Below, one piece after another: positions 1 through 17,681 of a stretch of DNA of 48,024 nt. Where the stretch lies: contig CAZEOJ010000002.1 of NCBI GenBank assembly GCA_964513825.1, positions 1-48,024 of the forward strand, in the 5' to 3' direction. The stretch's first letter is position 1, and each line of letters opens with the position of its first letter. The translations under genes and the position numbers were made by a program. This DNA is from an uncultured Bacteroidaceae bacterium. Lineage in GTDB: Bacteria > Bacteroidota > Bacteroidia > Bacteroidales > P3. The notes beneath the pieces are model-generated. The model was not told the DNA's origin. It did no database searches and saw nothing but the letters and a program-made list of their open reading frames with translations.

Positions 1-1173
1 TCCATAGACCCCTATATCATCTACCGCTCGGGGCCCTTCGACGACAACCCCGGAGGCCGCCTGCAGGTCTACCAACGCTCCACGCAAGATTTTGAACATA
101 AACTGCTTATCGACAACGCCCTCACCGACAACAACTGCATGAACTGCCATGCCGTGGGCGCCGGAAACGCCGAGCGCATGGTGGTTCACATACGCGGCGC
201 CCACGCCGGCACCCTCGTCATCCACGCCGACAGCGCTATCAAAATCACCGTTCCCGCCACCTACGATTTCCGTCTTTCCTATCCCGCCCACAACCCTGCG
301 CACCCCTATATCGCTTTCGCTACCACCAAGATAGCCCCCTTCGGCTACGTCAATCCCCACCGCACCCAAGACCTCGTGGCCGACTACGGCGGGCGCATCG
401 TGCTCTACGACACCCGTCGCGACCGCATCTTCTCCACGCCCGCGCTGAGCGACCCTGCCTATCAATACACTTTCCCCACGTGGAGCCCCGACGGACGCAC
501 CCTCTATTTCTGCCGCACCGCGACGCTCGATTTCGACAGCCTCACGCCCGAGAACGAGAAAGAGGCGCTCGCCGCCTTTCGCTACGATTTGTATAAAATT
601 GATTTCGACCCCGATACAGACACTTTCGGCACGCCCGAAATCGTCTATCCCGTAAGCCGTCACTATGTGAGCGCTGCCATGCCCGCCGTGCATCCCTCGG
701 GTCGCTATATCTTGGTTTCGGCCATGCTGATGGGGTCGCACGCCTCGCAGAATCAGGGGGATATTTATTTGATAGATAACAAAAAAGACACGATGCGCGC
801 CTTGGACGAACTCAACAGTCCCGACGGGGAGGCGGCCGCGGGCTGGAGCGTGGACGGCAACTGGGTGGTGTATCGAAGCAAGATGCTGAACGGTTCCAAT
901 TCGGCGTTGTATATAGCGCATTTTGAGTGCGATAGCGCGGAGGGTCAGCCTGCGGCCGCCTCTTTTTCTCCCCCCTTTGTTCTTCCCGAAAGAAATCTGT
1001 ATTATTATAAAAGGAACACACGGATGCAGATTTTCCCCGTTTTCAGCCGCACGCCCTCTCCGCTCAACCCGCAGAAGTGGCGGCAGTGGAACCTGCAACC
1101 CGCCCACATCCCCGACCTGAGCGCCTTTACCCCCACCTCCGCAGAACCCGATTCCCGCCCCTCCGGCCACTGA
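1..1173 (+). CDS. Family P paralog P0: CxxCH-motif TolB/PD40-like beta-propeller protein, 5' end cut by the window edge
   Basis: Frame 1 is open from base 1 (SIDPYIIYRSGPFDD...), so the listed ORF 139..1173 is only the part after the first ATG. It contains NNCMNCH (CxxCH codons 136..150) and PD40-type repeats (FPTWSPDGRTLYFCR, VHPSGRYILVS, WSVDGNWVVY). It is collinear with 5890..7518(-). Confidence 0.85.
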   Translation, partial: SIDPYIIYRSGPFDDNPGGRLQVYQRSTQDFEHKLLIDNALTDNNCMNCHAVGAGNAERMVVHIRGAHAGTLVIHADSAIKITVPATYDFRLSYPAHNPAHPYIAFATTKIAPFGYVNPHRTQDLVADYGGRIVLYDTRRDRIFSTPALSDPAYQYTFPTWSPDGRTLYFCRTATLDFDSLTPENEKEALAAFRYDLYKIDFDPDTDTFGTPEIVYPVSRHYVSAAMPAVHPSGRYILVSAMLMGSHASQNQGDIYLIDNKKDTMRALDELNSPDGEAAAGWSVDGNWVVYRSKMLNGSNSALYIAHFECDSAEGQPAAASFSPPFVLPERNLYYYKRNTRMQIFPVFSRTPSPLNPQKWRQWNLQPAHIPDLSAFTPTSAEPDSRPSGH

Positions 1174-1210
1174 GGTTAGATACGAATACCGGTCTTTATG
1201 ACATCAAAAG

Positions 1211-2746
1211 TCAATAACTTGTGGGCTCGCCGGGAGATTTTTGCAGGGCGGCGGCTTGTTGTGGGGTGAGGGGGGAGGCTGTGCGCACCAGAGTGGGGAG
1301 GTTGAAGGCCTTTAAGAAAGTCTGATAGAAACGGGGATCCTTTTGCGGCAAAAGAAAAGGCTTGCTAAAGTTTTTTCCGTCGAAATACGAGAAGTAGGGG
1401 AGCGAATAGAGGCCGTCGCCCCGCTTGCTCGCAAACACCATCCAGCGGCCGTCGGAACTCCATTCGTGCCAACTCTCCGATTCGGGCGAATTGAGCACGG
1501 CGCAGTCGATAGGCTCGGAGATAACACCAAGACTATCAAACCGCAATGCCACCAAATCGCCGTAGGCATGATAGGGCACCGAATTGAACAAAGCCTTGCA
1601 ATACACCAGCACATCCCCGCGAGGATTCACACGCGGCACCGAATAGCTCTCTCCCGCTTTCCCCTGCGCCAACACCTCCACGGGCGGCACAAAACGTCCC
1701 TCGGAGGCCGAAAAACGCACCCGCACCAAATCGAAATAGATGTGCCGCACCCGTTCGGTTGGGTCGGGGTAGCGCGTCACCGTGTCGGCGCTCACCTTGG
1801 CTGTGCGGCAGAAATACAGCCATTCGCCGTCGGGACTCCAGGCCGGCCAGGTCTCCTCAAAATCTTCCGTCCACAGCAAGGTATCTAAAATCAATTGATT
1901 ATGTACCACATCATACAGCACGATATTGGAGGCCGTGTCCAAAAGGTTAAAGAAGCGCTTGTGCGCCGCATAGCCGCCCACGCCCACGATGTTGGTCGAG
2001 AATACCATCCAATCGCCCGCAGGATGCCAGGCGGGATAGACTAAATTGATCGGCGCGCGGATTTTCTTCGCCTCGCCGTTGTGCATCAACAGCGTGCCGT
2101 TCGAGGGGTTGCGGAAATGCAGGCTCATCGAGGCCGCATCGCCTTTGTGATAGGTGTGGCAGTTGAAACAGTTGTTGTCCATCAGGCTGTTGGACACTAA
2201 GTTACGGCAAGAAAAATTTTCCATGCAACGCTCCCACAACCCCAGTTCGCTATACACGCCGTCGGTGGGTTGCACTAATCGGTAGGTGAGGTAAGGATCG
2301 ATAGAGTCGGCCACATGCCAGTGCAGGGCGGGGAAGGTGTAGGTGCGGCCGCTTGCGGCGCGGGCTTCCATCGCCAGACGGATAGGTTTTTGCGATGCGT
2401 AGGCTGTTTGCAGCAGTTCCCGCCAGAGTTTTTCGGGAAAGCGGAGGCCGTTTTTCTTGGCGTGCAGACGGCTCACGCACTTGGTATCGTCCACGTCCAC
2501 ATCTACCCAAAATTTTGTGAACGAATCGGGTAGACAGAAGTTGAGGGGGGCGATATTGCAGGGAATCACAATCCCGTCGCCATAGTCCGGATAGAGTGGC
2601 GCCGCCATATCCACGGCCGCCAAAGCCGTTGTCCCGCTGTCCGCCAGACCGCCCGTCTGCCGTCCGCCATCCCCGCAGCCCGTTATCAATACAAAAACTA
2701 CCCCCACCAACATCATCCCCCTCCAAAACTTGTAACGCATAACCAT
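1211..2746 (-). CDS. Family P paralog P1: lipoprotein with CxxCH motif and PD40-like beta-propeller
   Basis: Start moved from 2827 to ATG 2746 (MVMRYKFWRGMMLVGVVFVLITGCGDGG, a signal peptide with lipobox LITGC). The 27 upstream codons would overlap yoeB. Family motifs present: IPCNIAPLNF, DSIDPYLTYRL, NNCFNCH (2156..2170), YPAWHPAGD, WPAWSPDGEWLYFCR, WSSDGRWMVFASKR. Confidence 0.85.
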   Translation of the reverse strand: MVMRYKFWRGMMLVGVVFVLITGCGDGGRQTGGLADSGTTALAAVDMAAPLYPDYGDGIVIPCNIAPLNFCLPDSFTKFWVDVDVDDTKCVSRLHAKKNGLRFPEKLWRELLQTAYASQKPIRLAMEARAASGRTYTFPALHWHVADSIDPYLTYRLVQPTDGVYSELGLWERCMENFSCRNLVSNSLMDNNCFNCHTYHKGDAASMSLHFRNPSNGTLLMHNGEAKKIRAPINLVYPAWHPAGDWMVFSTNIVGVGGYAAHKRFFNLLDTASNIVLYDVVHNQLILDTLLWTEDFEETWPAWSPDGEWLYFCRTAKVSADTVTRYPDPTERVRHIYFDLVRVRFSASEGRFVPPVEVLAQGKAGESYSVPRVNPRGDVLVYCKALFNSVPYHAYGDLVALRFDSLGVISEPIDCAVLNSPESESWHEWSSDGRWMVFASKRGDGLYSLPYFSYFDGKNFSKPFLLPQKDPRFYQTFLKAFNLPTLVRTASPLTPQQAAALQKSPGEPTSY

Positions 2747-2759
2747 ACAGTCTGCTATT

Positions 2760-3026
2760 TTAATCGTAATGTCCGTAGGAAGAAAACACCAACACTTTAA
2801 TCTGGTCTTCGTGAATTTCGTAGACAAGCCGATGTTTCTGACTTATTCTTCGCGACCATGTGGGGATTTCAAAACCTTTCAGCTGTTCCGGATGACCGGT
2901 GCCGGTTGTCGGATGCAAGGAAAGTTCCTCCAAGAGTCTCAGGGCTTTTTTATAATAGGCCGGTTCGGATCTTTCAAGCTTGTCGATGTCGGACAAGGCT
3001 TCTGTAGTATAATCAACCTTGTACAT
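2760..3026 (-). CDS. yoeB: Txe/YoeB-family type II toxin (RelE/ParE superfamily mRNA interferase)
   Basis: 88 aa. GTGHPEQLKG...WSRRISQKHRLVYEI...YGHYD matches the YoeB signature G-x-G-K/H-P-E-x-L-K ... WSRRI ... HRLVY ... Y-x-HY. It overlaps the upstream antitoxin gene by 14 nt. Confidence 0.9.
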   Translation of the reverse strand: MYKVDYTTEALSDIDKLERSEPAYYKKALRLLEELSLHPTTGTGHPEQLKGFEIPTWSRRISQKHRLVYEIHEDQIKVLVFSSYGHYD

Positions 3027-3291
3027 GGCCTTCTACTCTCATACGATCTAAAAATTCATCGAAAGACTCTCCTGGATTGGGAGAATACACCAACCCTTGT
3101 CTTGCCTGCTCCTTGGCGCGATCTATCTTGGCATAAAATTCCTCCTTGGTCATCAGGGTGTCGTCTTTCTTCACCCTCGACAACTTAAAGGCATCTTTCT
3201 TGCGCGTGATGAGCAACTCCAAGCCTTTCGTCACCTGGTCAAGATAATGGCGTTGGTTGGTTCTAAACTCGCGAGCACTGACGGTAAGCAT
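3013..3291 (-). CDS. yefM: Phd/YefM-family type II antitoxin
   Basis: Start set at internal ATG 3291 (MLTVSAREFRTNQRHYLDQVTKGLELLITRKKD...). This N-terminus fits the Phd/YefM pattern. The 22 upstream codons of the listed ORF are hydrophobic junk that run over the promoter and operator. It is translationally coupled to yoeB. Confidence 0.8.
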   Translation of the reverse strand: MLTVSAREFRTNQRHYLDQVTKGLELLITRKKDAFKLSRVKKDDTLMTKEEFYAKIDRAKEQARQGLVYSPNPGESFDEFLDRMRVEGHVQG

Positions 3292-3314
3292 AACTTTATG
3301 TGTTTTTTCAACTA

Positions 3315-3322
3315 CAAAGATA
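3315..3322 (-). promoter_or_regulatory. Putative Bacteroidota -7 promoter box (TATCTTTG) for yefM-yoeB
   Basis: The minus-strand sequence TATCTTTG matches the TAnnTTTG consensus and lies 24 nt upstream of ATG 3291. Confidence 0.4.
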
Positions 3323-3336
3323 CAAAAAAAACAAAG

Positions 3337-3355
3337 GTGTACCAAAATGGTACAC
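3337..3355. promoter_or_regulatory. Perfect 8-bp inverted repeat GTGTACCA-AAA-TGGTACAC; candidate YefM-YoeB operator
   Basis: Read directly from the sequence. It lies about 46 nt upstream of the yefM start, just upstream of the -7 box. The half-sites contain GTAC cores that resemble the TGTACA operator core described for E. coli yefM-yoeB. Confidence 0.45.
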
Positions 3356-3388
3356 AATAATTCTCTTTAAAAATGTAAACTTTTTAGT

Positions 3389-3396
3389 TAACTTTG
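3389..3396 (+). promoter_or_regulatory. Putative -7 promoter box (TAACTTTG) for the HigB-remnant/XRE antitoxin pair
   Basis: Matches TAnnTTTG and lies 66 nt upstream of ATG 3462. Confidence 0.35.
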
Positions 3397-3461
3397 CGGA
3401 CGGAAAAACGTTTTGCAAACAGGAAGACGCATTGCAAACGGAAAGCCACACGATAAAGGGA

Positions 3462-3662
3462 ATGACACACCGTACCATATACCTATACAAGAATTACTTT
3501 AAGCAGTTTTATCTAAGTCAGACAGAAAGTGTTAGACGAAAGATAAACTACTGCCTCGATGTTGTCAGGACAATGGAGAGAATACCCGTGTCCATACTGA
3601 AAAGTATAGAAGGAACGAAAGGACTCTACGAAATACGTGTGGAATTCGGGGGTGATATATGA
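3462..3662 (+). pseudogene. Truncated RelE/HigB-like (phage Gp49-like) toxin remnant
   Basis: MTHRTIYLYKNYFKQFYLSQTESVRRKINYCLDVVRTMERIPVSILKSIEGTKGLYEIRVEFGGDI* is the typical N-terminal two thirds of Gp49/HigB-like toxins (..F.K.L.G...L.EIRV.....). It stops before the catalytic C-terminal strands. A short out-of-frame piece (MTEYFNEKRNG, about 3660..3695) resembles the usual extreme C-terminus, which suggests an internal deletion. Confidence 0.6.
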
Positions 3663-3686
3663 CAGAATACTTTAACGAAAAACGCA

Positions 3687-3998
3687 ATGGATAAAGATAA
3701 AAAAGCGACTGTGATGAAAGCCCGCACATTCGATGAACTTCTTGACGCGGAGTATGGCGTGGCCGGTACGCCCGAAAGAGAACGGTTTGATGCCGATTCG
3801 GCCGCGTTCAGCCTTGCCGTGACGCTTAAGGAAGAACGCCTGAGGGCCGGCCTCACGCAAGAGCAGCTTGCGGTGAGAATCGGCACCAAGAAAACCTATA
3901 TATCGCGCTTGGAGAACGGCAAATCCGACGTTCAACTCCATACGCTTTTCCGCATTTTCGAAGGCTTGGGGAGGCGGGTGGCGTTGACTATTTTTTAG
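3687..3998 (+). CDS. XRE-family helix-turn-helix antitoxin (HigA-like)
   Basis: 103 aa. LTQEQLAVRIGTKKTYISRLENGKSDVQLHTLFRIFEGLG is a classic HTH_3/XRE motif. It lies directly downstream of the toxin remnant, in the toxin-first HigBA order. Confidence 0.8.
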   Translation: MDKDKKATVMKARTFDELLDAEYGVAGTPERERFDADSAAFSLAVTLKEERLRAGLTQEQLAVRIGTKKTYISRLENGKSDVQLHTLFRIFEGLGRRVALTIF

Positions 3999-4014
3999 GC
4001 GGCTGTTGATACAA

Positions 4015-5124
4015 CTAAAAAAACATGTAGTAGCGGTAGGTGTAGGTGTGGCCGAATTCGGCGGTGAGATCTTCGGCGGTTTTGGCGCCGCGTTGCCATT
4101 GAACGCGGGCCTGCAGAAAGTTGCGGAGACCCCGTTCGATACCCTCATCAAAATGAAAATCATTAAAATATAACTGAACCGAATCGGCAATCGGAAACAT
4201 CTCCTGCCGCATGATGCAGACCATTTCCTGCAGGGGGCGGGGCATCTGCCCGTAGGCGGGCAACAAAGACGCCGCATGTTCCAGATTCTTCCTGAGTAAA
4301 TCAAAGAGCAGGACATATTCCAAAACACCCCGCGAACCGGGATTTTGTTCCCATCTTGCCCGACAATCCCCCTCCAGACTTCCCATATCGTTCAGATAGT
4401 CAGTAAGACCCAATTTTCCGTAGGCGGTGATTTTTTCGGCCAAGGCCACCACCTCGTCCGAAGCCGCGATAGCCGGGCCCGAAGCCGACGAAGCCCGCAG
4501 AAACGCCAACACCTCGCGATACTTCAAAGCCTCTTTCTTCCAACCCTTCAACCCCGCCCACACATGTATGTACCGTTCTGCCAGATTATATTGCTCACAG
4601 GCCATCATGGCCGGCACCATCAACGCCAACGCTTCGCCCGACACCCCGTTTCTCTCTATCAAGTTGATACCCATGCAATATACGGCGGTCGGATTATCTA
4701 ACGCCCGCTGACGGAGCATCCCTGCCAACGAATATTCTCCCTGCAGGCCGTCTTCTACCATGTTGTAGATTTCGGGCGTGCGGTAGTAGGAGAAGAAGCG
4801 AGAAACAAGGTTTCCCGAACCCACGAGCGCCGTTTTGGTATAGGAGGCAAGACGCAGACGAAAAATGATTTCTTCCTGCGAAAGATTTGCATAAAGCGTG
4901 TTCTGCCCGTTCACCACGTCGCTGACGGGGCAGGGATGAGAGAACCAATAGGTATCGGCAAACTCCACGGCTTCCGCATAGCGCTCCTCCATGCACAGCT
5001 GCTCCATTTTCTGCAACTTCTTCTCAAAGCTGCTGGTTTTCCCGCAGCCCGTAAGCAAACCCGTCAAAAGTCCAGCCACCAATCCCACGGCCAACATTTC
5101 GCTAATTTTCGCTATTATTTTCAT
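4015..5124 (-). CDS. Family M paralog M2': lipoprotein carrying only the C-terminal soluble domain of family M
   Basis: MKIIAKISEMLAVGLVAGLLTGLLTGCGK has the lipobox LTGC. The rest aligns with the C-terminal halves of 7515..9053, 10766..12640 and 16053..17507. Shared motifs are MPRPLQEMVCIM vs LPVYMQEAICFI, MPRHVQEALLAI and LPIYLQEGLFLA, plus the aromatic tail GHTYTYRYYMFF*. Confidence 0.75.
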   Translation of the reverse strand: MKIIAKISEMLAVGLVAGLLTGLLTGCGKTSSFEKKLQKMEQLCMEERYAEAVEFADTYWFSHPCPVSDVVNGQNTLYANLSQEEIIFRLRLASYTKTALVGSGNLVSRFFSYYRTPEIYNMVEDGLQGEYSLAGMLRQRALDNPTAVYCMGINLIERNGVSGEALALMVPAMMACEQYNLAERYIHVWAGLKGWKKEALKYREVLAFLRASSASGPAIAASDEVVALAEKITAYGKLGLTDYLNDMGSLEGDCRARWEQNPGSRGVLEYVLLFDLLRKNLEHAASLLPAYGQMPRPLQEMVCIMRQEMFPIADSVQLYFNDFHFDEGIERGLRNFLQARVQWQRGAKTAEDLTAEFGHTYTYRYYMFF

Positions 5125-5544
5125 TTAGGCAACAAAATTTACACCAGAAAATTCCTGCAACGTCATAATTCCAACCTTTGGAAATTTGATGGCTTTAAGG
5201 ATATTAAAGTGGGTGTCGTTGGTAACGATTAACTCTGCATTGGCACAAATGGCGCAATCCACAAATTTGTTGTCGTCGGGGTCGGCCTTGATAAGATGGT
5301 AGAAGAACGTAGGGGAGACCCTTTTCAATAAAGGGGTCTCGAGAATGGCGGCTACAACCAGGCGCGCAACCTGCGGATTGATTTTGCGACTGATGATTTC
5401 TTCATATTCCATCACAATATCCGTAGATACACAGAGACTTATACGTCCCTCTAAAATATCCGTCCAAACCTTGTGATAAGGACTTGATGAAGGAAGTATC
5501 ATCAAAAGGCAATTCGTGTCCAGAACGATAGTCCGCATAAACAA
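5125..5544 (-). CDS. PIN-domain toxin (VapC-like, PIN_3-type)
   Basis: 139 aa. It shows the acidic PIN pattern: IVLDTNCLL at the N-terminus, MEYEEI, ADPDDNKFVDCAI and LIVTNDTHF. The start abuts the antitoxin stop (5545), and the stop abuts the start of 4015..5124. Confidence 0.8.
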   Translation of the reverse strand: MFMRTIVLDTNCLLMILPSSSPYHKVWTDILEGRISLCVSTDIVMEYEEIISRKINPQVARLVVAAILETPLLKRVSPTFFYHLIKADPDDNKFVDCAICANAELIVTNDTHFNILKAIKFPKVGIMTLQEFSGVNFVA

Positions 5545-5829
5545 CTATTTGTGGATGTATGGCGTGCGCAGATGCTCCTTTCCCCAAGCCTCTATATCGG
5601 CCACCTCCATATTGTGCGCGGAAAAATACTCATCGATAGCGTTTTGCGCCTGTTGCGCGGCGGCAATTTCGTCCGAAATAATTTCAAAGGGGATTTTCCG
5701 TCGTTGTACCACGGTGCGGGCAAACACGTTAAAGGCCGCATTCGAACTCAAGCCGAACTGCGAGCAGAGGCTGTCGAACTCTTTCTTAAGGTTGGAATCC
5801 AACCGAACTGTCATAGCTACTTGAGGCAT
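5545..5829 (-). CDS. RelB/DinJ-family antitoxin
   Basis: 94 aa. MTVRLDSNLKKEFDSLCSQFGLSSNAAFNVFARTVVQRRKIPFEI fits the ribbon-helix-helix DinJ pattern (R.D..LK......L...GL........F...V......PF). It sits directly upstream of the PIN gene. Confidence 0.8.
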   Translation of the reverse strand: MPQVAMTVRLDSNLKKEFDSLCSQFGLSSNAAFNVFARTVVQRRKIPFEIISDEIAAAQQAQNAIDEYFSAHNMEVADIEAWGKEHLRTPYIHK

Positions 5830-5849
5830 AATCGTGATTCTTTACAGCA

Positions 5850-5857
5850 CAAAGATA
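5850..5857 (-). promoter_or_regulatory. Putative -7 promoter box (TATCTTTG) for the relB/dinJ-PIN operon, with an adjacent TTGCAA-A-TTGCAA repeat (5866..5878)
   Basis: TAnnTTTG match 21 nt upstream of ATG 5829. The tandem copies of the palindromic hexamer TTGCAA immediately upstream are a candidate antitoxin operator. Confidence 0.35.
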
Positions 5858-5889
5858 GCAAATAATTGCAAATTGCAACCATTTTGTCG

Positions 5890-7518
5890 TCAGTGGCCGC
5901 CGAAGTCGTTGGGGAGGGAGGGGCCGGAGGTGGCGTCCACCCTCCCGGCGGCTATTCCGACTGTGTCGAAAAACGACATATCGGGATAGGAAAGCGGCTG
6001 TTCCACCATGGTTTTATACGCCTTCCTGTCGAACGGAAGCGGCTTTCTGTCAAATACGGGGAACGTGAACGAGCGCGTGTTCCACAGGTAGTGGTCGGGA
6101 TGCTTCTGCGGCAATACAAACGGCTTGGAAATAATCTGTCCGTCGGGCGCGGAACCATCAAAATGCGCCAGATATAGAAGCGATTGCGCCCCCGATTCCC
6201 GCTTGGACGTAAACACAAACCATTTGCCGTCAGAAGTCCACACCCCGCGGCGGTCCGCATCGGGCGAATTGAAGCCCGGCGTATGCACGGGACGCAGGCC
6301 CGCGCTATCCCACTTCAGCAAAATCAAATCACCTTGATTCTGAGACGGAAAAGACCCCATCATCACCGTCGATACAAACAAGAAACGCCCGTCGGGGCTT
6401 ACACTCGGAATGGACGCGGAACGGTTTACGCTGTCCCCCCACGCAAGCGGCGAATACACAAATTCGGGCTCTCCAAAGGATTCTCTATCTTCATCAAAAT
6501 CAATGCGGAACAAATCGTAGCGAAACTCGGCCAAACACTCTTTCTCCCGCTCCTGCGGCAGATTCCACACCTCCATATAAGGCGTGCGGCAAAAGTAGAG
6601 GCTCTTGCCGTCGGGCGCCCAGGTAGGGAAAGAATAACAGAAAGCCGTGTCGGTGAGGGCGGGGCAAGAAAACAGACGGTTCCGCCGTGTGTCGTAGAGC
6701 ACAATCCAGGCCGCCACATCGGGCATGAGGTCTTGGGTGCGGTGCGGATTGACAAACTGCACGGGCGAGATGCGCGTGGTGGCAAAGGCGATATAACGCC
6801 CGTCGGGGCTCCAGGCGGGGTAGGAAAGACGGAATCCGTAGCGGGCGGGCACCGAAATCTTGCACGACGAACCCTGGCCGTCGGTCACCACCGTGCCCGC
6901 AAAAGCCTGACGCACATGAAACACCATCCTGGAATCCACACCCAGACTATGGCAATTCATGCAGTTGTTTTCGGTCTGAAGGTTGTCCATCAGACAACGC
7001 TGCGAAAAATCGGTAAGGTTGCGCTCGTATACCTGCAAGCGTCCCCCCGTGTTCTGGTCGTGGGGGCCCAGACGATACACCAGATACGGATCTATGCTGT
7101 CGGGAGATACCCGCCACACCCGCAAGGCCGTATCGTCCACCACAAGACGCAGAAAACCGCCGCTCACGCAAGCCAGCGTTTCCCGCCAAGTTTTTTCATT
7201 GAAAATCCGCGTGCGACAACGGTTTTTTGTCCACGAAACCAACATGTTGCCCGTGCTGTCGCAGGCTTCCACCCGCACGCGGTGCGCCCGCCCGTCGGCC
7301 ATGCGGAAGTTGAGAGGTGCGATATTGCAGGGCAGCACGATTCCGTCGGCATAGTTCGGGTAGATGTCGGCGCAAGGCCCATATGCAGCGGCGCAAGGCC
7401 CATAGCAAGGCTCACAGCGAGGCCCGCAGGCGCAGAACAGACAGGCTCCCACCGCAAGGCCAAGGGCGGACAAGAGAGTTCTTAAACGGAATGACAAGCG
7501 CAAATCCATCATAATCAT
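5890..7518 (-). CDS. Family P paralog P2: lipoprotein with CxxCH motif and PD40-like beta-propeller
   Basis: 542 aa with a signal peptide and Cys-rich lipobox region (LAVGACLFCACG). Motifs: LPCNIAPLNF, DSIDPYLVYRL, NNCMNCH (6949..6963), YPAWSPDGRYIAF, FPTWAPDGKSLYFCR, VSPDGRFLFVS, WTSDGKWFVFTSKR. Its start overlaps the stop of the upstream M3 gene by 4 nt (ATGA at 7515..7518). Confidence 0.9.
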   Translation of the reverse strand: MIMMDLRLSFRLRTLLSALGLAVGACLFCACGPRCEPCYGPCAAAYGPCADIYPNYADGIVLPCNIAPLNFRMADGRAHRVRVEACDSTGNMLVSWTKNRCRTRIFNEKTWRETLACVSGGFLRLVVDDTALRVWRVSPDSIDPYLVYRLGPHDQNTGGRLQVYERNLTDFSQRCLMDNLQTENNCMNCHSLGVDSRMVFHVRQAFAGTVVTDGQGSSCKISVPARYGFRLSYPAWSPDGRYIAFATTRISPVQFVNPHRTQDLMPDVAAWIVLYDTRRNRLFSCPALTDTAFCYSFPTWAPDGKSLYFCRTPYMEVWNLPQEREKECLAEFRYDLFRIDFDEDRESFGEPEFVYSPLAWGDSVNRSASIPSVSPDGRFLFVSTVMMGSFPSQNQGDLILLKWDSAGLRPVHTPGFNSPDADRRGVWTSDGKWFVFTSKRESGAQSLLYLAHFDGSAPDGQIISKPFVLPQKHPDHYLWNTRSFTFPVFDRKPLPFDRKAYKTMVEQPLSYPDMSFFDTVGIAAGRVDATSGPSLPNDFGGH

Positions 7519-9053
7519 AGAAAATAAAACCGGAAAGTAAAAGTATTGCGGAAGGAACGCGAAGCCTCCATAAAATCCATTTTACCAACATGATAGAGCG
7601 TCCACGCCCGATACACCTCCTCCACCTCCTCCAACACATGCAGGCTGAGGTGATAGCCCATGTATGGCGTTTCGAGCATCTGCTTACGGTCCCACGAAGA
7701 AGGATAGTTGCGTATAAAGCAAATAGCCTCCTGCATATACACAGGCAAGGTCTTGCACCCGAGGCGGGCTCCCCATCCGGCCAGATACTCCAGACGGTCG
7801 AGCCGCTTTTCCATCAGGCAGAGCAATGTATAATATTCCCAAAGAGGCAAAGACATCTCCGCAGGCTTTCCCGCAAAGCCCTCGGCATAAATCCGCACCC
7901 AACCGTCTAAATGATTGCCGCCCCGCACCAACGAAGCCGACTGCAAAGGCACAGGCCGCGAACCATCCTCTCCCCGACAATCTCCCTCAAACTCCTCTGC
8001 CACATTCCGATACGCCAACGTGCGCGAGGCATAGCGCAGACTTTTTTGCAACAGACGGAACTGCCCCGTATGCAACTCGGCCCGCAAAAGCGGCCCCACA
8101 AAACGGTTCTGCCACCCCTTTTTCTCCAAATAAGAAAGGATAAAAGGCACCTGCGGCGCATATACCCCCAGACAATCCTGCAACAACACATAAGGATAGG
8201 CGCATTCTTCCGTGTAAGGAAAACCCGAGGCAAACATCCCGTCCATCCAAGGCATATCGTTGTAGTCCAAAAACATATTGTTGAGCCGCCCCGTCTGCAA
8301 AAGCGACAGTTTGAGCCAGGCCGTCATCTCCGCCCGTTGCACCTTTACCGCCTCCTTTTCATCCTCCAAAGGCACCGAAGCCCGCTCCCGACACACCCTA
8401 TCGCTGATTTGGAAACACCGCTCGTAGTTGCCCGCAGAGGCCGCCTGCCGCACCTGCAAGATATTTCTTTCCAAAGCGTTGTGATGATAGCCCAACACAA
8501 AACCCGGCACGCAGGCAAACGCCACACACGCCACCGCAAACCTGCCCCAACCCCAACCCCGCCGCTCAAAACGCCTCCAAAACCCAAAGGCCCGCACGCA
8601 AAGCGCCAATACTCCCATTCCTAAAAGCAGATCCATCGACCAACCCGCCACCGCAGGTTCGGAACTCGTGAAAAAATAGAAAAACACAGGCAGCACAAAC
8701 AGCGAATACTGCCGCAACACCGCCCATGCAAGCCTGCAGAAAGCCGCCGTTACCAAACCCGCCGCCAAAAGGATGCAAGGCGTGTTGATATAGAATTGAC
8801 TCACAAACCGCCACAAAAACTCGCCGAGGCGTGGATGCAGCCCCACCGCCTCCACCAAACCCTGCCCCTCGGGCCGCCCCAACCAAGCCCCCTCAAAAAA
8901 AGCCCTTACAAACGTGCGCGTATAGGCAAAGAAACCCACCTGAAACTGATTGTGGAAATAGGGCAGATACCACAGCAGGCAGAAACCCGCCGCCACAACC
9001 ACCAAAGCCGCGCCCCCCTGCCGCCCGCAAAACGAAAAAACACGCTTTTTCAT
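7515..9053 (-). CDS. Family M paralog M3: polytopic membrane protein with a large C-terminal soluble domain
   Basis: Start moved to ATG 9053 (MKKRVFSFCGRQGGAALVVVAAGFCLLWYL), 1 nt after the stop of P3. The listed start at 9131 would overlap P3 by 77 nt. There are about 7-8 hydrophobic segments in the first roughly 230 aa, then a soluble helical domain ending in FRNTFTFRFYFL*. Confidence 0.8.
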   Translation of the reverse strand: MKKRVFSFCGRQGGAALVVVAAGFCLLWYLPYFHNQFQVGFFAYTRTFVRAFFEGAWLGRPEGQGLVEAVGLHPRLGEFLWRFVSQFYINTPCILLAAGLVTAAFCRLAWAVLRQYSLFVLPVFFYFFTSSEPAVAGWSMDLLLGMGVLALCVRAFGFWRRFERRGWGWGRFAVACVAFACVPGFVLGYHHNALERNILQVRQAASAGNYERCFQISDRVCRERASVPLEDEKEAVKVQRAEMTAWLKLSLLQTGRLNNMFLDYNDMPWMDGMFASGFPYTEECAYPYVLLQDCLGVYAPQVPFILSYLEKKGWQNRFVGPLLRAELHTGQFRLLQKSLRYASRTLAYRNVAEEFEGDCRGEDGSRPVPLQSASLVRGGNHLDGWVRIYAEGFAGKPAEMSLPLWEYYTLLCLMEKRLDRLEYLAGWGARLGCKTLPVYMQEAICFIRNYPSSWDRKQMLETPYMGYHLSLHVLEEVEEVYRAWTLYHVGKMDFMEASRSFRNTFTFRFYFL

Positions 9054-9054
9054 C

Positions 9055-10710
9055 CTAATGCCCTCCCACAAATTGCACGGCCCCCGCCTCCAACTCCTCG
9101 TCCGAAATGCGGAAACCCTCCAACGAAACATCTATCTGCAAGTCCACGGCCTCCTCCCTGGCCACCCCCGCCAAAGCCCGCGCCTGCAAAGCCGCAGGTT
9201 CGGTAGCCAAAACAGGAAAGACAAACCCCCTCAGATTGGTCAGATAGAAATCGCCCCACTTCTGAGGAACCAAGAAAGGCCTCGAAAAATGCCCTGTAAC
9301 AGAATCGTAATGCGTAATATAGGTTTCGGGAATGGCCAGCGTGCGCCGGCTGCTCGAAAACACCATCCAACGCCCCGACGAAGAAAACGAATGCCCCTTT
9401 TCCGAGCCCGCCGTATTGAGCTCGCGCAGCTCCTCCACGGTGGAATCCTGTAGATTGAGCCGATAGAAATCGCCCAGGTTCTGTAACGGAAACGTGCTTG
9501 CCTTGAGCAAGGACACCACCATATACTTGCCGTCGGGCGACACTTTGGGCATACACGCGCTCTTCTGTATCTGCGAGAAAGGAAACGCGCACGCAAAGTT
9601 GGAGAAACGCTCCGTCTCGGGGTCAAAATCCATCTGCATCAAATCGGCCCACACCTGTTCCACACGGTTCTGGCGGAAACCCAAGGCCGTATCGGCATAT
9701 TGCGGATAGGGAAGACTGTCGTAGCGTTTGCGCGGCGACACACAGAAATACAACCGCTTTCCATCGCGGCTCCAGGTGGGGAAAACCGCCTCGTCCTCCT
9801 CGCGCGTAAGCTCGGGGCAAGAAAACAGACGCATCTTCTCCACATCCAAAATCACGATATGGCTCATTGTATCGAGCGTATAGATGATTTTGTGCGTGGC
9901 GTTGGCGTAGTGCACCGAGTGGGGCAGGTTGGTGGAGAAAGCCACATAGCGGCCCGAAGGATGCCAGGCAGGGTAGGTGAGGCGTATCTGATAGTTGGAC
10001 GGCACCTGTATCTTGCGCGCCTGTTTGCCGTCTATCAGCAAAGTGCCCTTATGCGCCTCGCGCAGATGCACCACCATGCGCGAAGCCCGGTGATCGTAAC
10101 AATCGTGGCAGTTCATGCAGTTGTTGTCCATATAACGGTTGTCGAGCACCTGGCGGGTTTCGAAATCGGTGAGCCTGCGTTGGCGCAGGAACAGCCAACC
10201 GTGTTCGCCCTCCTCGTATTGGCTGGCGCGGAAAAGCAGGTAGGGGTCTATAGCATCTTGGCTAACAAACCAATGCAAAGGCGAAAAACCATAACGGACG
10301 CCCTCTTGGCAGGCCGAAACCTCCACCCGAACCTCTCCCCCCGAGGCCCCCGACAACGCCTTGCGCCATTTCTTGAGCGGAATGCGGCTCCCGTTCTTGC
10401 CCATAGGCACGCGGAACGAAGCCACCAACGCCCCCTCGCGGTCAAAGAAACACATGCGCACCCGAGGCCGGGACCAACCCGAAGCGGGGCGCAGACAAAA
10501 GTTGAGGGGCGCTATGTTGGAGGGAATGCAGATGCTGTCGGTATCGTAGGGAAACACCACCTCGGTGGCGGAAATCTCCGGAACGCCGGCGGCCGAAACG
10601 CTTTCGCAGGCCCTCCGGCAGCCCGTGGCGGCCCAAAGGCCCAAGGTCAAAACACACCACATCCCCAGGGCGGACACGGCAGAACGGAAGCAAGAAATAA
10701 AGCCTTTCAT
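9055..10710 (-). CDS. Family P paralog P3: lipoprotein with CxxCH motif and PD40-like beta-propeller
   Basis: 551 aa with lipobox WAATGC. Motifs: IPSNIAPLNF, DAIDPYLLFR, NNCMNCH (10105..10119), YPAWHPSGRYVAF, FPTWSRDGKRLYFC, VSPDGKYMVVS, FSSSGRWMVFSSSR. The start is uncertain: a TATCTTTG box lies only 5 nt upstream, and an alternative Met is at codon 17. Confidence 0.85.
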   Translation of the reverse strand: MKGFISCFRSAVSALGMWCVLTLGLWAATGCRRACESVSAAGVPEISATEVVFPYDTDSICIPSNIAPLNFCLRPASGWSRPRVRMCFFDREGALVASFRVPMGKNGSRIPLKKWRKALSGASGGEVRVEVSACQEGVRYGFSPLHWFVSQDAIDPYLLFRASQYEEGEHGWLFLRQRRLTDFETRQVLDNRYMDNNCMNCHDCYDHRASRMVVHLREAHKGTLLIDGKQARKIQVPSNYQIRLTYPAWHPSGRYVAFSTNLPHSVHYANATHKIIYTLDTMSHIVILDVEKMRLFSCPELTREEDEAVFPTWSRDGKRLYFCVSPRKRYDSLPYPQYADTALGFRQNRVEQVWADLMQMDFDPETERFSNFACAFPFSQIQKSACMPKVSPDGKYMVVSLLKASTFPLQNLGDFYRLNLQDSTVEELRELNTAGSEKGHSFSSSGRWMVFSSSRRTLAIPETYITHYDSVTGHFSRPFLVPQKWGDFYLTNLRGFVFPVLATEPAALQARALAGVAREEAVDLQIDVSLEGFRISDEELEAGAVQFVGGH

Positions 10711-10765
10711 GCTACAAAGATAGTTTTTTTGTATTTTCGCGCTTGATTCTTGTATAATAGGTGAT

Positions 10766-12640
10766 ATGAACCGAAAGAATACCCTGCGGAAACTCCTTGC
10801 CTACCTGCTTGCAGGCGGGGTGTTCTTTTGCGTGCTCTATTTCGGCCTCAAAGAAGTTTTGGCGGGTTGGGAGGCGCACAGCTCGCTGTTCCGCTATTCG
10901 GCCTCGTATATAGACGAATTCCGCGGCGAGATATGGGGGCCGCTGCTTTATACCAACAGTTTCTTGGTGCAGTTTGCCTACTATCCCGCCTTGGGCGCCC
11001 TTATCTGCGCGCTCTTGCTTACGCTTACGGCCTGGAGCCTCAATACGGCGGCGGGTATGGAGCGCTTGGGGCAAATTCCCATAGGTGTTGGTCTCACGGC
11101 CTGCCTTCTGCCCGTGTTTCCGCATACGTTTATGGTGTGGCCGCTTATTTTCCTTGCCATAGGTCTGGGTGGCGTGCTTTGGCGCAAGACCCGCCATGTA
11201 GCGCTGCGCATCGTCTACTTGGCCTTTTTGGTGTTCTATATCCGCGAATATATTTTGGTGGCCTGGGTGTTCTATGGCATGATAGACTTGGTGGATTGCC
11301 TTTTCGAAGTCCGCACGGGCGGGGCCGCGTTTTTAAAACGCTTTGCCATCCACACCCTTGCACTTGTGGTGCTCTGTTGCGTGGGTGTATGGATATGGCA
11401 GCCCTATGCTTTCTTTTCGACGGGTTTCGAGAGGCTTGATTTCGGAAACGCCATAAGCACCGAATATATCCGCGTGCCTTTCGCCTATTTTTATGTAAAA
11501 TCTCTTGCCACATTTTGCGTATTGGTGGGTTGTGTGGCATGGATGTTCACGCCTTTGTTGGCGCAGGTAAAGGGTAAGATTTTTCGTGGCATCGTGCCGG
11601 GACTTTGCCTGACAGCGGGTCTTTTCTCGCTCGGCATCACGCCCGTGCAGGCCAGGCCTATGGCCCGCTTCTTTGCCGTAGACCGGCTTTGCCGCCAATA
11701 CCGCTGGCAAGAGGCCTTGCAGCAACTTAACCGCGACTATATCTACCATACCGCCGCCACGGGTCATCTGGCCGAGGATATGCTTTACGAGGCCCAGCTT
11801 AAGACCTGCCTTTTGGCCACGGGCAGGGCCAGTGGCCAAATATTCACTTATCGGCTTTCCACCTTCCCATTTATTTTTCCCACAAAGTTTATCAACCGCC
11901 CCGAATCCTATGTAACTCCCGTTTACTATGCCTATGCGGGCAATTTCAGCGAAAGCCTGCATCAGAACTACGACTGGATAACCAGCCATAACTATTCGCC
12001 TGTGGTGATGCGCGAGATTATCAAGGTGAGCCTGATGCTCAACGACACCTTGCCCGCCTCCAAATTCGTGCATATTATGCAGCAAAGCCTGTTCCGAGCT
12101 AAGGAAGCACAACGCCTTTTTGCGGGCGAGGATTCCGAGGCGCAGGCACAGATAGAAAGGGGAAAGGCTATGCTTCCCTTGGTCAATTATGCAGTGGATG
12201 CCTATAAACCCGATAAGAATGCCCGTCGCAATTTTCTCTATAGGGGCTATAACCCCTTGTTTTTCGAATACTACCTTGCGCTTTGTCTCTTGGATAAGAA
12301 TCCTGGCGACATTGCCCTTCATCTTGACCAGATAGAGGAATGCTATCCGCAGGGCATGCCCCGCCATGTGCAGGAAGCCCTGTTGGCCATAGCGGGCTAT
12401 TCGCCTTCCACAGCCATTACTTCTGATGGCATAGATGGTATAGAGGCCGATACGCGCAGCGATTTCGCGCTCTTTGTGCTCGACAACCTCAAGTTCCAGC
12501 GCGAGGAGATTTCGTTTGCCGATTTAGCCCATAAGTGGAGTCATACCTATTGGTTCTACGATCTCTATATGCACGAAATCCCCGAAACCCTACAACCCCA
12601 ACAACCTCCTTATGGAAATCAATTGGATAAAACCATTTAG
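10766..12640 (+). CDS. Family M paralog M4: polytopic membrane protein with a large C-terminal soluble domain
   Basis: 624 aa. About 8 hydrophobic segments lie in residues 1-290, followed by a soluble domain. Family motifs are MPRHVQEALLAI and an aromatic near-terminal WSHTYWFYDLYM. It is divergent from P3, and its 3' end overlaps the P4 start by 29 nt. Confidence 0.85.
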   Translation: MNRKNTLRKLLAYLLAGGVFFCVLYFGLKEVLAGWEAHSSLFRYSASYIDEFRGEIWGPLLYTNSFLVQFAYYPALGALICALLLTLTAWSLNTAAGMERLGQIPIGVGLTACLLPVFPHTFMVWPLIFLAIGLGGVLWRKTRHVALRIVYLAFLVFYIREYILVAWVFYGMIDLVDCLFEVRTGGAAFLKRFAIHTLALVVLCCVGVWIWQPYAFFSTGFERLDFGNAISTEYIRVPFAYFYVKSLATFCVLVGCVAWMFTPLLAQVKGKIFRGIVPGLCLTAGLFSLGITPVQARPMARFFAVDRLCRQYRWQEALQQLNRDYIYHTAATGHLAEDMLYEAQLKTCLLATGRASGQIFTYRLSTFPFIFPTKFINRPESYVTPVYYAYAGNFSESLHQNYDWITSHNYSPVVMREIIKVSLMLNDTLPASKFVHIMQQSLFRAKEAQRLFAGEDSEAQAQIERGKAMLPLVNYAVDAYKPDKNARRNFLYRGYNPLFFEYYLALCLLDKNPGDIALHLDQIEECYPQGMPRHVQEALLAIAGYSPSTAITSDGIDGIEADTRSDFALFVLDNLKFQREEISFADLAHKWSHTYWFYDLYMHEIPETLQPQQPPYGNQLDKTI

Positions 12641-14189
12641 AAAGGCCTGGGGGCTTGTGGCCGTGTTGGCTATAGTTTTTTTTGCGGCCTGCACGCCACG
12701 CGTGCGCGAGAGCGAGCTTGCGCAAATGCGCTATCTTTCGGCGCCCGAGGCCTATCTCTATCCCGATTATGCCGATTGCACGATACCCGTCAATATCGCG
12801 CCTCTCAATTTCTATATTCTGCCGCCCCATAGCCGCTACGAACTCAAGGTCTATGGCATAGGCCCCGATACCCTGCGCCTCAAAGGCCGTTATAGGGTGC
12901 AGTTTTCTCCCAAGGCCTGGCATAGGTTGTTGGCCCAGAACCTGCACGATACGCTGCGGGTGCAGATAAGTCTCCATAGCAGCGAGGGCATAAAAAGCTA
13001 CGCGTTCACGTGGACGGTGCAAGACAGCATAGACCCCTATTTCAGCTGCCGCCTCATAGAACCCAGCTACCAGACCTCCTCGGTGCTGCAGACGATAGAA
13101 TATAACCTGCAAGACGCCACAAGCCGCGTTCTGTTCGACAACCGCCTGCAAGGCATAGGCTGCGTGAACTGCCACACCTATGCCCAAAATAACGGCGACT
13201 ATATCGTCTATCACGTGCGCTTTGACCATACCGGCACCTTTATCGTGACGCCCGAACGCACCTTGCGGGTAGATCTTAAATCCGAGCGTTTTCCGCAGGG
13301 GGGTGTCTATCTCGCCTGGCATCCCAATAAGGAGCTTATCGCCTTCGGCACGGCCTCGGCCTATCCTTTTGTGCACGCTCAGGATATTGTGCGCCGCACC
13401 GAGGTCTACGACTCTTTCGGCGACCTGATTCTCTACGACGCGGTGCGCAACTATATTTTCTCCGACGAGCGCCTGTGCGACAGCCTCAGCGAGGAGACCT
13501 TTCCCTATTGGAGCCCCGACGGCAAATGGCTCTATATATGCCAGTCGCCCAATCCGCTCCGCGATGAAACTGAAGACGATGTGGATTTTTCCAAAAAAAT
13601 CCGCTATAACCTTATCCGCGTGGCCTTTGATGATTCCTCGCGCACTTTCGGCCGCATCGATACCGTCATCAACGCGGCCATGGCGGGCCATACCGTTTCC
13701 TTTCCGAGGCTTTCGCCCGACGGGCGTTTTTTGGCCGTCTGCCTCAGCGATCATGGCACCTTTCCTATCCGCCATCCCGAGAGCGACCTCTATCTGCTCA
13801 ATCTCGGCCCGCAGGAGGGCGAGGGCTTTGCACATAGGCCGGGCTTTCTCTATCCCGTCAAGAAAATGGAGCATGTAAACAGCCCCTACACCGAAAGCTA
13901 CCATACCTTCAGCAGCAAGGGCTCCTGGCTGATGTACAGCACCAAGCGCGAGGACAACCTCTATTCGCGGCCCTATTTCACCTATATAGATGCAGCGGGT
14001 GTTTCGCACAAACCCTTTCTGCTGCCGCAGAAAGACCCCGCTTTCTATCTATCTTTCTTCCGCTCGTTCAACGTGCCCGAGTTTGCCAACCGCCCCGTGC
14101 GTATCAACGCCGCCGCATCCAAAAGAAATGCGTATATGCCGAGGATACGCCCCGACAGCATAGTTATTCTAAAATATATACCCCGATAA
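12612..14189 (+). CDS. Family P paralog P4: lipoprotein with CxxCH motif and PD40-like beta-propeller
   Basis: 525 aa with lipobox FFAAC. Motifs: IPVNIAPLNF, DSIDPYFSCRL, IGCVNCH (13161..13175), LAWHPNKELIAF, FPYWSPDGKWLYIC, LSPDGRFLAVC, FSSKGSWLMYSTKR. Confidence 0.9.
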   Translation: MEINWIKPFRKAWGLVAVLAIVFFAACTPRVRESELAQMRYLSAPEAYLYPDYADCTIPVNIAPLNFYILPPHSRYELKVYGIGPDTLRLKGRYRVQFSPKAWHRLLAQNLHDTLRVQISLHSSEGIKSYAFTWTVQDSIDPYFSCRLIEPSYQTSSVLQTIEYNLQDATSRVLFDNRLQGIGCVNCHTYAQNNGDYIVYHVRFDHTGTFIVTPERTLRVDLKSERFPQGGVYLAWHPNKELIAFGTASAYPFVHAQDIVRRTEVYDSFGDLILYDAVRNYIFSDERLCDSLSEETFPYWSPDGKWLYICQSPNPLRDETEDDVDFSKKIRYNLIRVAFDDSSRTFGRIDTVINAAMAGHTVSFPRLSPDGRFLAVCLSDHGTFPIRHPESDLYLLNLGPQEGEGFAHRPGFLYPVKKMEHVNSPYTESYHTFSSKGSWLMYSTKREDNLYSRPYFTYIDAAGVSHKPFLLPQKDPAFYLSFFRSFNVPEFANRPVRINAAASKRNAYMPRIRPDSIVILKYIPR

Positions 14190-14191
14190 CC

Positions 14192-14656
14192 ATGAAAAAA
14201 CACCTCCTTTTGTTCGTTCTCCCCCTGTGCCTGTGCGCGTGCAGCGGCAAGCACGGGGCCGAAAAAACGGGCCACACCTTTCTCAAGGCCTACTACACCG
14301 ATCTCGACTTTGCCAAGGCCAAGCAATACGCCACACCGGTATCGCATGCGCTTATAGATGAAAGGGCCGAGAACCTTTCGTATAATCCCTATGCCAAGCA
14401 GGAAGTGCCGGAGCTTACCATCAAGGAGTTGCGAATGGACAAGGAAGATAAAAACAAGGCCACACTTAGCTATACGCTCAACCGCGCCCAAAAGACGCTG
14501 GATCTTAAAAAAGCAGAGGGCAAATGGTTAGCCGACCTCGAACGCGAGGCCAAAATGAGGGAGGAGGGTATGCAGAGCCTGGAGGACGAAACGCATGGGG
14601 GCTTTGCTGCTGCTGCCAGCGGGCCGATTAAATACCATAAACGCCGCGTGCGTTGA
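14192..14656 (+). CDS. Small lipoprotein of unknown function
   Basis: 154 aa. MKKHLLLFVLPLCLCACSGK has the lipobox LCAC. The gene starts 2 nt after the P4 stop. A charged C-terminal tail is present. No family assignment was possible by eye. Confidence 0.7.
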   Translation: MKKHLLLFVLPLCLCACSGKHGAEKTGHTFLKAYYTDLDFAKAKQYATPVSHALIDERAENLSYNPYAKQEVPELTIKELRMDKEDKNKATLSYTLNRAQKTLDLKKAEGKWLADLEREAKMREEGMQSLEDETHGGFAAAASGPIKYHKRRVR

Positions 14657-14671
14657 TTATAAAGAAATCCT

Positions 14672-14679
14672 TATTTTTG
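14672..14679 (+). promoter_or_regulatory. Putative internal -7 promoter box (TATTTTTG)
   Basis: TAnnTTTG match 30 nt upstream of ATG 14709. Confidence 0.3.
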
Positions 14680-14708
14680 CAAAATCTTAATTAAATAAAC
14701 AAGACAGT

Positions 14709-15359
14709 ATGAAAAAGTTGATGCTTATAAGCCTTTTGGCGATGGCGGGAGTTTGGACTTTGCAGGCGCAGACCACCGATAGCACGGCGGTGGCGCAGGC
14801 CGATACGGCGGTTGTTTTAGGGGATGGTGGGATGCGCAGAGGCGTTGAGCTTCCTGAAAAATTAAGGGAGTTTTTAGGGGCGGATAAATATAAGGAAGCG
14901 CTTGCCGAATATCTCAAGTTCAGGCCTACCATAGCGGGCGATGATTTTTTGGCGACATATGCCGATATGAATATTTATAGAACGCTGGCGGAAAATATGC
15001 CAGAGAAAACCGAATATAGGGAACTTTATGAGGTTGCTAAAAAGAAATTGCAAACCACCTATGGCAAGAGGGTGGATGTGATTCTGATGGAGTTGGACGA
15101 ATTGCAGGCCCCTACCGACCAAGACAGAATCCGTGTCTACACTAAGGTGATTGAGGCGGACTCCACCTATACGCATGCTTATCTCGAAAGAGGCTATGCT
15201 TGGATGAACGAAGGCCGTATGTTGGATGCTTGTCACGATTTTAGCAAGCATCCCGACTATGATAAAATGCCGTGGAAACAAGAATGCGAGAGCCTGTTGG
15301 AACAGGAGGCTATAGAAAAGGCAACAGCAGAAGAGGCGGCGAAAGCAGCAAAAAAATAA
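14709..15359 (+). CDS. Secreted TPR-like protein, paralog 1
   Basis: 216 aa with signal peptide MKKLMLISLLAMAGVWTLQAQ. It has a TPR-like segment (KVIEADSTYTHAYLERGYAWMNEGRMLDACHDFSK) and is collinear with 15366..16049. Confidence 0.7.
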   Translation: MKKLMLISLLAMAGVWTLQAQTTDSTAVAQADTAVVLGDGGMRRGVELPEKLREFLGADKYKEALAEYLKFRPTIAGDDFLATYADMNIYRTLAENMPEKTEYRELYEVAKKKLQTTYGKRVDVILMELDELQAPTDQDRIRVYTKVIEADSTYTHAYLERGYAWMNEGRMLDACHDFSKHPDYDKMPWKQECESLLEQEAIEKATAEEAAKAAKK

Positions 15360-15365
15360 TTCGCG

Positions 15366-17611: not shown

Positions 17612-17619
17612 TAAATTTG
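17612..17619 (+). promoter_or_regulatory. Putative -7 promoter box (TAAATTTG) for the FGE-domain/giant-protein operon
   Basis: TAnnTTTG match inside the only sizeable AT-rich intergenic gap (17508..17681), 63 nt upstream of ATG 17682. Confidence 0.4.
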
Positions 17620-17681
17620 TGGCTTGTATGAGCTTGTGCTCAAATTATATTAAAAAGAAAAACAATAAAATAAGTGAGATT

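Follow-up and report, generated by a model that had tools for sequence, protein, structure and literature searches.

What does an invariant CxxCH motif do in an exported beta-propeller protein, and with which partner does such a protein work? The question is raised by a 48 kb stretch of contig CAZEOJ010000002.1 from an uncultured Bacteroidaceae bacterium (48,024 nt; the whole stretch is referred to as the window, and the organism's genome was seen through this one contig). The window encodes five paralogs, P0 to P4, each combining a CxxCH with a PD40-type propeller. A sequence-only reading had taken them for a single-heme domain fused to a periplasmic propeller lipoprotein and could name no system to which they belong. 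The P proteins are exported propeller lipoproteins of a family in which the motif is invariant, and their genes are coupled to, diverge together with, and in some cases are fused to genes for membrane proteins of the DUF6057 family. This partner, absent from the sequence-only reading, is the main clue to the organization of the system. Covalent heme c on the CxxCH is the most likely reading of the motif and one that we consider probable, with room for real doubt.

The five open reading frames and their motifs lie exactly where they had been placed: P0 at 1..1173 (+ strand; CMNCH at 136..150), P1 at 1211..2746 (− strand; CFNCH at 2156..2170), P2 at 5890..7518 (− strand; CMNCH at 6949..6963), P3 at 9055..10710 (− strand; CMNCH at 10105..10119), and P4 at 12612..14189 (+ strand; CVNCH at 13161..13175). 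All five give significant Pfam matches to PD40 repeats (E 2.6e-9, the value for P0, to 4.7e-17), in agreement with the TolB-like repeats noticed earlier. P1 to P4 share one order of elements: a signal peptide with a lipobox Cys (LITGC in P1), PxNIAPLNF, D[SA]IDPY, C-x-N-C-H ~40 residues further on, and then the PD40 repeats. The N-terminus of P0 is truncated at the window edge, and P0 is without the lipobox and the two motifs that follow it for this reason. The signature first given as N-C-x-N-C-H holds in all five copies as C-x-N-C-H; the Asn ahead of the first Cys does not hold, as P4 has G-C-V-N-C-H. Over all six reading frames, the window contains six CxxCH motifs, five of which are those of the P proteins. 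The other paralogs are only 28 to 52% identical to P0 in pairwise comparison, which argues that the copies are old and not an assembly artefact.

The conservation of the motif extends far beyond the window. A search with P2 gave thousands of relatives, and a profile of the N-terminal domain and the motif region matches 1,847 clusters (50% identity) at E <= 1e-3 and 483 at E <= 1e-30. The CxxCH is kept in 5/5 paralogs, in all 120 homologs tallied among the P2 matches listed, and in 147 of 148 distant representatives retrieved with the profile; the exception, a 286-residue sequence, is probably a fragment or a frameshift. Moreover, 107 of 107 family open reading frames from loci of other genomes have exactly one CxxCH, and non-family open reading frames in the same loci hold three in 246,783 residues versus 0.84 expected from composition. 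In the 122-sequence alignment (P2 numbering), the invariant columns include C186, N188, C189, H190, and R203, about 17 further positions are invariant besides the motif, and H201 and the lipobox Cys are each conserved in at least 90% of the sequences. The core motif of P2 (6898..6963, − strand) thus reads C186-M-N-C-H190 ... H201-V-R203, and across three alignments C, N, C, H, and R are invariant and H201 is nearly so. The first x of CxxCH varies (M, V, I, F, or L), with C, C, and H unchanged in full-length members. With an extended motif pattern, the second x is Asn in 253/255 sequences, 12 residues separate the motif from the next conserved position in 250/255, and that position is His in 245/255 and Tyr in 10/255, with Gln, Gly, or Arg in a few others. 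The CxxCH is under strict selection, its Cys, Cys, and His being invariant over ~270 diverse homologs.

Relatives were found in at least 575 loci among species-representative genomes, and the hosts among the matches listed are nearly all Bacteroidales or Marinilabiliales, with a few KSB1. They include Parabacteroides distasonis, P. faecis, Odoribacter, Alistipes, Prevotella, Dysgonomonas, Tannerella, and Prolixibacteraceae. In their source records, they are annotated as "hypothetical protein", "PD40 domain-containing protein", "WD40-like Beta Propeller Repeat", and "Tol biopolymer transport system component". The N-terminal half lies outside every Pfam and NCBIfam model, and elsewhere these collections give only PD40 or sub-threshold TolB matches; PDB sequence searches with P returned nothing significant, and a literature search found no paper on the family. 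None of these sources yields a described family that matches, and the impression that the system could not be named has stood.

The survey of the distribution and the neighborhood of the family that had been proposed along with that impression identifies one conserved companion, DUF6057. A same-strand DUF6057 open reading frame lies within 400 bp of the P gene in 99 of 109 cases (82 loci), upstream in 67 and downstream only in 32, and most P genes without a close DUF6057 gene are at contig ends. No other neighbor is conserved (81 loci). SusC/SusD genes occur nearby in ~21 of 81 loci, which was judged to be near the Bacteroidales background (a rough estimate, not a computed control), and a link to polysaccharide utilisation loci was rejected. 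The distance matrices of P and the adjacent DUF6057 proteins correlate with r = 0.75, a value reached in none of 999 permutations, and in genomes with two pairs all 16 informative comparisons place the DUF6057 protein next to a given P in the matching clade (the comparisons are in part reciprocal, so that the independent events are fewer). The correlation and the mirrored clades indicate that the pair duplicates and diverges as a unit. In addition, at least three representatives are single-chain DUF6057–propeller fusions with no lipobox between the two parts: P0262 (994 residues; locus L082, 2461..5445), P0208 (857 residues), and P0186 (787 residues). Collectively, the genetic evidence for a cognate P–DUF6057 unit is strong, and the coupling of DUF6057 to a CxxCH propeller protein appears not to have been reported before. 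A record titled "Christensenellaceae bacterium Phil1" (Firmicutes; locus L021, CAVFYC010000029.1) carries a typical Bacteroidales-type P and DUF6057 pair, which may reflect a binning or contamination error or a transfer event.

Four DUF6057 genes are present in the window. D3 (10766..12640, + strand) encodes a full-length member with ~8–9 transmembrane helices and a C-terminal all-alpha repeat domain (PF19529, E 1.5e-39, 136.8 bits). D1 (4015..5124, − strand) is the C-terminal helical-repeat domain alone behind a lipobox of its own, LLTGC (PF19529, E 1e-16, 61.4 bits, profile positions 307–568 of 569; custom profile, E 2.6e-29). D4 (16053..17507, + strand) is DUF6057-like and without a directly adjacent propeller gene (PF19529, E 4.1e-15, 56.1 bits; custom profile, E 4.2e-37). 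These three pass the PF19529 gathering threshold of 29.8 bits and D2 fails it; D2 (7515..9131, − strand) is a divergent DUF6057 membrane protein that has no Pfam match but matches, with an E of 2.5e-29, a DUF6057 profile from which D2 and its orthologs had been left out. Its true start is likely the ATG at 9053, 1 bp past the P3 stop. On the minus strand, the order is P3, D2, P2, RelB/PIN, D1, two toxin-antitoxin modules, and P1. P3, D2, and P2 are tightly packed, with 1 bp spacing or a 4 bp overlap (the P2 start overlaps the D2 stop by 4 bp), and D1 is parted from P1 by the inserted toxin-antitoxin genes. On the plus strand, D3 and P4 overlap and are followed by three small exported proteins and then D4; P0 is convergent with P1. 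The three small proteins between P4 and D4 (14192..16049, + strand) are a 154-residue lipoprotein, a 216-residue protein, and a 227-residue TPR protein, and they are not conserved beside the pair in other genomes.

Five copies constitute the largest array among the 82 sampled loci (one copy in 63, two in 13, and three in five), and three type II toxin-antitoxin modules are interspersed among the paralog pairs: 2760..3357 (− strand), 3300..3998 (+ strand), and 5125..5829 (− strand), of the types YoeB/YefM, unknown protein plus HTH_3 antitoxin-like, and PIN/RelB. This crowding within 14 kb, together with the very fast evolution of DUF6057 (members are ~16% identical to one another), would suit a fast-diversifying envelope family of receptors or phage or host-factor targets, with copy number driven by an arms race and the CxxCH incidental. 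We regard this explanation as very improbable: the motif and the other invariant positions are unlike what a purely diversifying surface receptor would show, and the residues after the lipobox Cys are not acidic, unlike those of the Bacteroides surface-export signal. There are no PADLOC matches for P, D, or the large neighboring genes, which also led to the rejection of an anti-phage defence system.

The fold of P2 was predicted with AlphaFold2 on the 122-sequence alignment, with a predicted local distance difference test score (pLDDT) of 88 and a predicted template modeling score (pTM) of 0.86. The model comprises a signal helix, a beta-rich domain (residues 50–178), a four-strand unit (187–192, 198–202, 208–212, and 218–221), and then the PD40 blades. 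C186 is positioned just ahead of the first strand, and M187–L192 (MNCHSL, with C189 and H190) forms that strand; H201 is on the second strand, and R203 follows directly after it. When compared with the PDB by Foldseek, the model matches TolB first (E 4.5e-15; TM score 0.41 by query and 0.54 by target), followed by S9 and DPP-IV propellers and lactonases. TolB is a six-bladed propeller and only ~4.5 blades were counted after residue 232 of the P2 model; hence, the four-strand CxxCH unit is most simply a propeller blade. Since the family's own PD40-blade profile scores this segment no better than shuffled controls, the CxxCH strand was rejected as a degenerate PD40 repeat by sequence, and it is the AlphaFold2 strand count by itself that suggests a first blade.

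P resembles TolB in being a periplasmic PD40 propeller whose best structural match (for P2) is TolB itself. It differs in several respects: the P proteins score 14 to 35 bits (at most 34.6) against the TIGR02800 equivalog cutoff of 343, they are lipoproteins with a different N-terminal domain and an invariant CxxCH, and they do not occur in a tolQ-tolR-tolA-tolB-pal context, their neighbor being DUF6057 as discussed above.

Several lines of evidence argue for heme c on this motif. An invariant Cys, Cys, and His around a varying first x is the pattern expected of a heme c site and not of a disulfide. The signal peptide and lipobox of P1 to P4 provide the Sec export on which c-type cytochromes depend. 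In Bacteroides thetaiotaomicron, a member of the same order, a fused CcsBA matures the c-type cytochromes (PMC13645880), and the substrates of maturation systems are exported chains that are still unfolded and carry CxxCH (PMC13645880). Taken together, the invariant residues, the export, and the Bacteroides CcsBA are the basis of the heme c reading. A 64-residue motif profile gave 28 heme c sites among its 30 weak matches to PDB sequences, none of which is significant (the "SCMNCH" of Wolinella NrfA, for example, matches with E 0.023); these matches are not independent evidence since the CxxCH itself dominates them. Kinship to heme I of quinohemoprotein amine dehydrogenase, in which CMGCH-x12-HQR parallels CMNCH-x12-HxR, was likewise rejected (E 0.07, not significant).

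Known CxxCH sites form a helical turn. A number of observations weigh against the heme c reading or the proposed partnership, the first being that M187–L192 is confidently predicted as a beta-strand, which argues against a canonical site. No cytochrome c domain was detected in P (the best PF00034 hidden Markov model match has an E of 0.03–0.08), and no cytochrome is present among the best 50 of 298 Foldseek matches to P2 (E <= 0.001). The single-heme domain first proposed thus did not survive as a separate domain, and the cytochrome c fold that was to be sought around the CxxCH is replaced in the model by a strand right before the PD40 blades. The near-invariant H201 gives way to Tyr, Gln, Gly, or Arg in some members, and no complete ligand set is defined; the 48 kb of the window contain no ccs genes; and neither a substrate nor an electron donor for P could be named. 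On the side of the partner, the D3 model has no significant Foldseek match in the PDB (the best are PPR/TPR designs, E 0.2 (0.22)), and Pfam shows no significant TPR match for the helical domain of DUF6057.

Six-bladed propellers often have metal or active sites near the central channel. This feature raises the possibility that the CxxCH is instead a metal site, a redox-active dithiol, or a structural element on a beta hairpin at the propeller mouth, in which case P would be a TolB-like periplasmic binding or scaffold protein that works with DUF6057. The beta conformation of the motif (pLDDT 88–96 in this region), the lack of a detected cytochrome fold or domain, the variation at H201, and a weak SGL/SMP-30 match of P0 (Pfam, E 0.0014) are all in keeping with such a site. 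A disulfide, however, needs no invariant His right after the second Cys, and a zinc site would call for further conserved Cys or His, of which there are none: outside the motif, the Cys that are conserved are that of the lipobox and C310. Moreover, the neighboring proteins are almost without CxxCH, and an unfolded exported CxxCH in a CcsBA host is expected to receive heme (PMC13645880). Considering both sides, we find a non-heme role unlikely, and the least unlikely of the three alternatives weighed here.

If heme c is present on P, its environment can be considered further. Invariance is limited to the proximal His and an Arg close by, and the residue that could be distal is His, Tyr, or Gln; we would therefore favor an open heme that binds ligands or performs catalysis over one that shuttles electrons. 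The conserved Arg, with His/Tyr/Gln two positions ahead of it, would then resemble a distal pocket, or a contact to a heme propionate, more closely than a sixth ligand that is fixed. Covalent heme c and a propeller occur in one periplasmic chain in cytochrome cd1 nitrite reductase, in quinohemoprotein alcohol dehydrogenases, and in the alpha subunit of hydrazine synthase (PMC12758564), and this is the candidate likeness for P. In these enzymes, however, heme c has a separate alpha-helical domain to itself, either a cytochrome or a middle domain, whereas the P motif is in predicted beta structure at the start of the propeller. Hydrazine-synthase-like or cd1-like kinship was rejected, as neither is among the best 50 of 298 Foldseek matches, and quinohemoprotein alcohol dehydrogenases are likewise absent from these. 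P would be a variant of the periplasmic proteins that join heme c to a propeller, paired with an uncharacterised membrane family. It is possible, with the chances tilted against it, that the family constitutes a new hemoprotein class in which a PD40 propeller bears one covalent heme c on beta structure at its entrance and no cytochrome c domain is present. Together with its cognate DUF6057 protein, such a protein would form a periplasmic module, so far unrecognised, that acts as an enzyme or a sensor, occurs in most gut Bacteroidales, and is expanded to five pairs here.

How would the DUF6057 protein serve such a unit? The D3 model (pLDDT 80; pTM 0.80), built on a thin alignment of 17 sequences, has ~8–9 membrane helices followed by an all-alpha repeat domain (314–601); the alignment is thin because further large protein searches for DUF6057 gave only 12–13 close relatives. 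The C-terminal domain is the better conserved part of the family, in which only one column is invariant across 54 members. That domain is placed in the periplasm, since D1 consists of it behind a lipobox, the fusions join DUF6057 to the propeller, and the partner is exported; these observations also suggest that the membrane part is mainly an anchor. A DUF6057 profile has no match among PDB sequences, and a literature search found neither a paper on the family nor a described function. A CcsA-like heme lyase was rejected (no Trp-rich WxWD motif, no conserved His, the single invariant column, and no fold match), and so was a GT-C glycosyltransferase, for which the sole hint is AftA at rank 40 (E 2.7, not significant) and for which there is no invariant acidic residue.

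Based on these features, we propose the following model. P is a Sec-exported lipoprotein with a family-specific N-terminal beta domain (~130 residues), a short beta unit, and a TolB-like PD40 propeller. The short beta unit would carry the C-x-N-C-H and, 12 residues later, (H/Y/Q)-x-R, and the CxxCH would receive one covalent heme c from the System II (CcsBA) of the host. The heme would be located where the N-terminal domain meets the propeller, more likely as an open ligand-binding or catalytic site than as a simple electron shuttle, and any catalytic activity of P is putative. Each P would work with its own DUF6057 protein, in which a poorly conserved multi-helix membrane anchor bears a better conserved periplasmic helical-repeat (TPR-like) domain. 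This domain would keep P on the outer surface of the inner membrane and could be either a stable subunit or, while heme is being attached, a holdase specific to its client, as CcmI/NrfG are in System I. That a heme-propeller lipoprotein docks on the helical-repeat domain of its own partner in this way is put forward tentatively, at slightly less than an even chance, and the physical docking mode is one that we infer.

The TPR-type domains of CcmI and NrfG bind the C-terminal parts of their apocytochromes. These proteins resemble what is predicted for DUF6057 in being membrane-anchored, in having a periplasmic helical-repeat domain, and in being encoded beside, and specific for, a CxxC(H/K) client; CcmI and NrfG recognise a C-terminal segment of theirs. 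They differ in that no sequence or fold similarity to DUF6057 was found, in that DUF6057 has ~8–9 transmembrane helices and can be fused to its client, and in that the hosts of DUF6057 and P presumably use System II, with no adjacent heme lyase gene in the window.

In this context, the C-terminal tails of the P proteins are of interest. The exact C-terminal Gly-His dipeptide reported for three copies is present (SGH in P0 and GGH in P2 and P3). In the family, an exact C-terminal [S/A/G]-G-H is found in 39 of 201 full-length members, all in the clade nearest to P0, P2, and P3, where it ends tails of variable sequence with a predicted pLDDT < 50. In this clade, the conserved free [S/A/G]-G-H that ends the disordered tail may serve to dock P on the DUF6057 domain or, alternatively, may be a heme ligand; both are putative roles. 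By analogy, the helical-repeat domain would recognise its client perhaps via this tail, for which CcmI/NrfG offer a functional precedent, with no homology found.

The same analogy can be taken a step further, such that DUF6057 would be a transient client-specific chaperone of the CcmI/NrfG kind that presents a beta-propeller apocytochrome to CcsBA, mature P then functioning by itself at another place in the envelope. The pairing of each propeller gene with one DUF6057, their strict co-divergence, a membrane anchor with a periplasmic helical-repeat domain, and a conserved free Gly-His tail, which the binding of client C-terminal parts by CcmI and NrfG would fit, are in keeping with this scenario. 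We nevertheless deem it improbable: the covalent DUF6057–propeller fusions fit a permanent complex better, the proteins share no detectable sequence or fold likeness with CcmI or NrfG, and heme attachment, itself inferred, is presupposed.

The rest of the window is dominated by a stop-free frame at 21428..48022 (+ strand; 8,865 codons) that runs off the right window edge. It is rich in T, V, A, G, D, and S, begins with ~10 "AYLGGFGDGH" repeats, and has matches to Ig_7 (CHU_C-associated, E 2.8e-22), PKD, and Ig_3, as well as weak SprB-repeat matches; from its sequence, the product looks like a giant SprB-like adhesin. The open reading frames at 26669..47833 (− strand; 7,054 residues) and 22631..26506 (− strand; 1,291 residues) are antisense shadows of this gene, both rich in G, V, A, and R, with 0% Trp and no Pfam domain. 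Directly upstream of the giant gene, 17619..19721 (+ strand) and 19747..21420 (+ strand) encode FGE-sulfatase (SUMF1-like) domain proteins. An FGE-sulfatase domain is also carried by GldJ and GldK/PorK, lipoproteins of gliding and type IX secretion.

Bacteroidales are dominant in the mammalian gut, and exogenous heme is a requirement for most of them. Few c-type cytochromes are known in this order; B. thetaiotaomicron is said to have six. The claim of heme c on P is cheap to test, as orthologs are present in cultured, tractable species such as Parabacteroides distasonis (loci on JAFBIU010000012.1 and NZ_SRYM01000007.1), and the fusions P0262, P0208, and P0186 would be useful constructs for structural work. 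If beta structure at the propeller mouth indeed bears the heme, this would be a new way to build a heme c site. Furthermore, if the reading is true, DUF6057 would gain its first functional context, and a family of ~1,800 clusters would add an unstudied heme-dependent activity to the periplasm of Bacteroidales.

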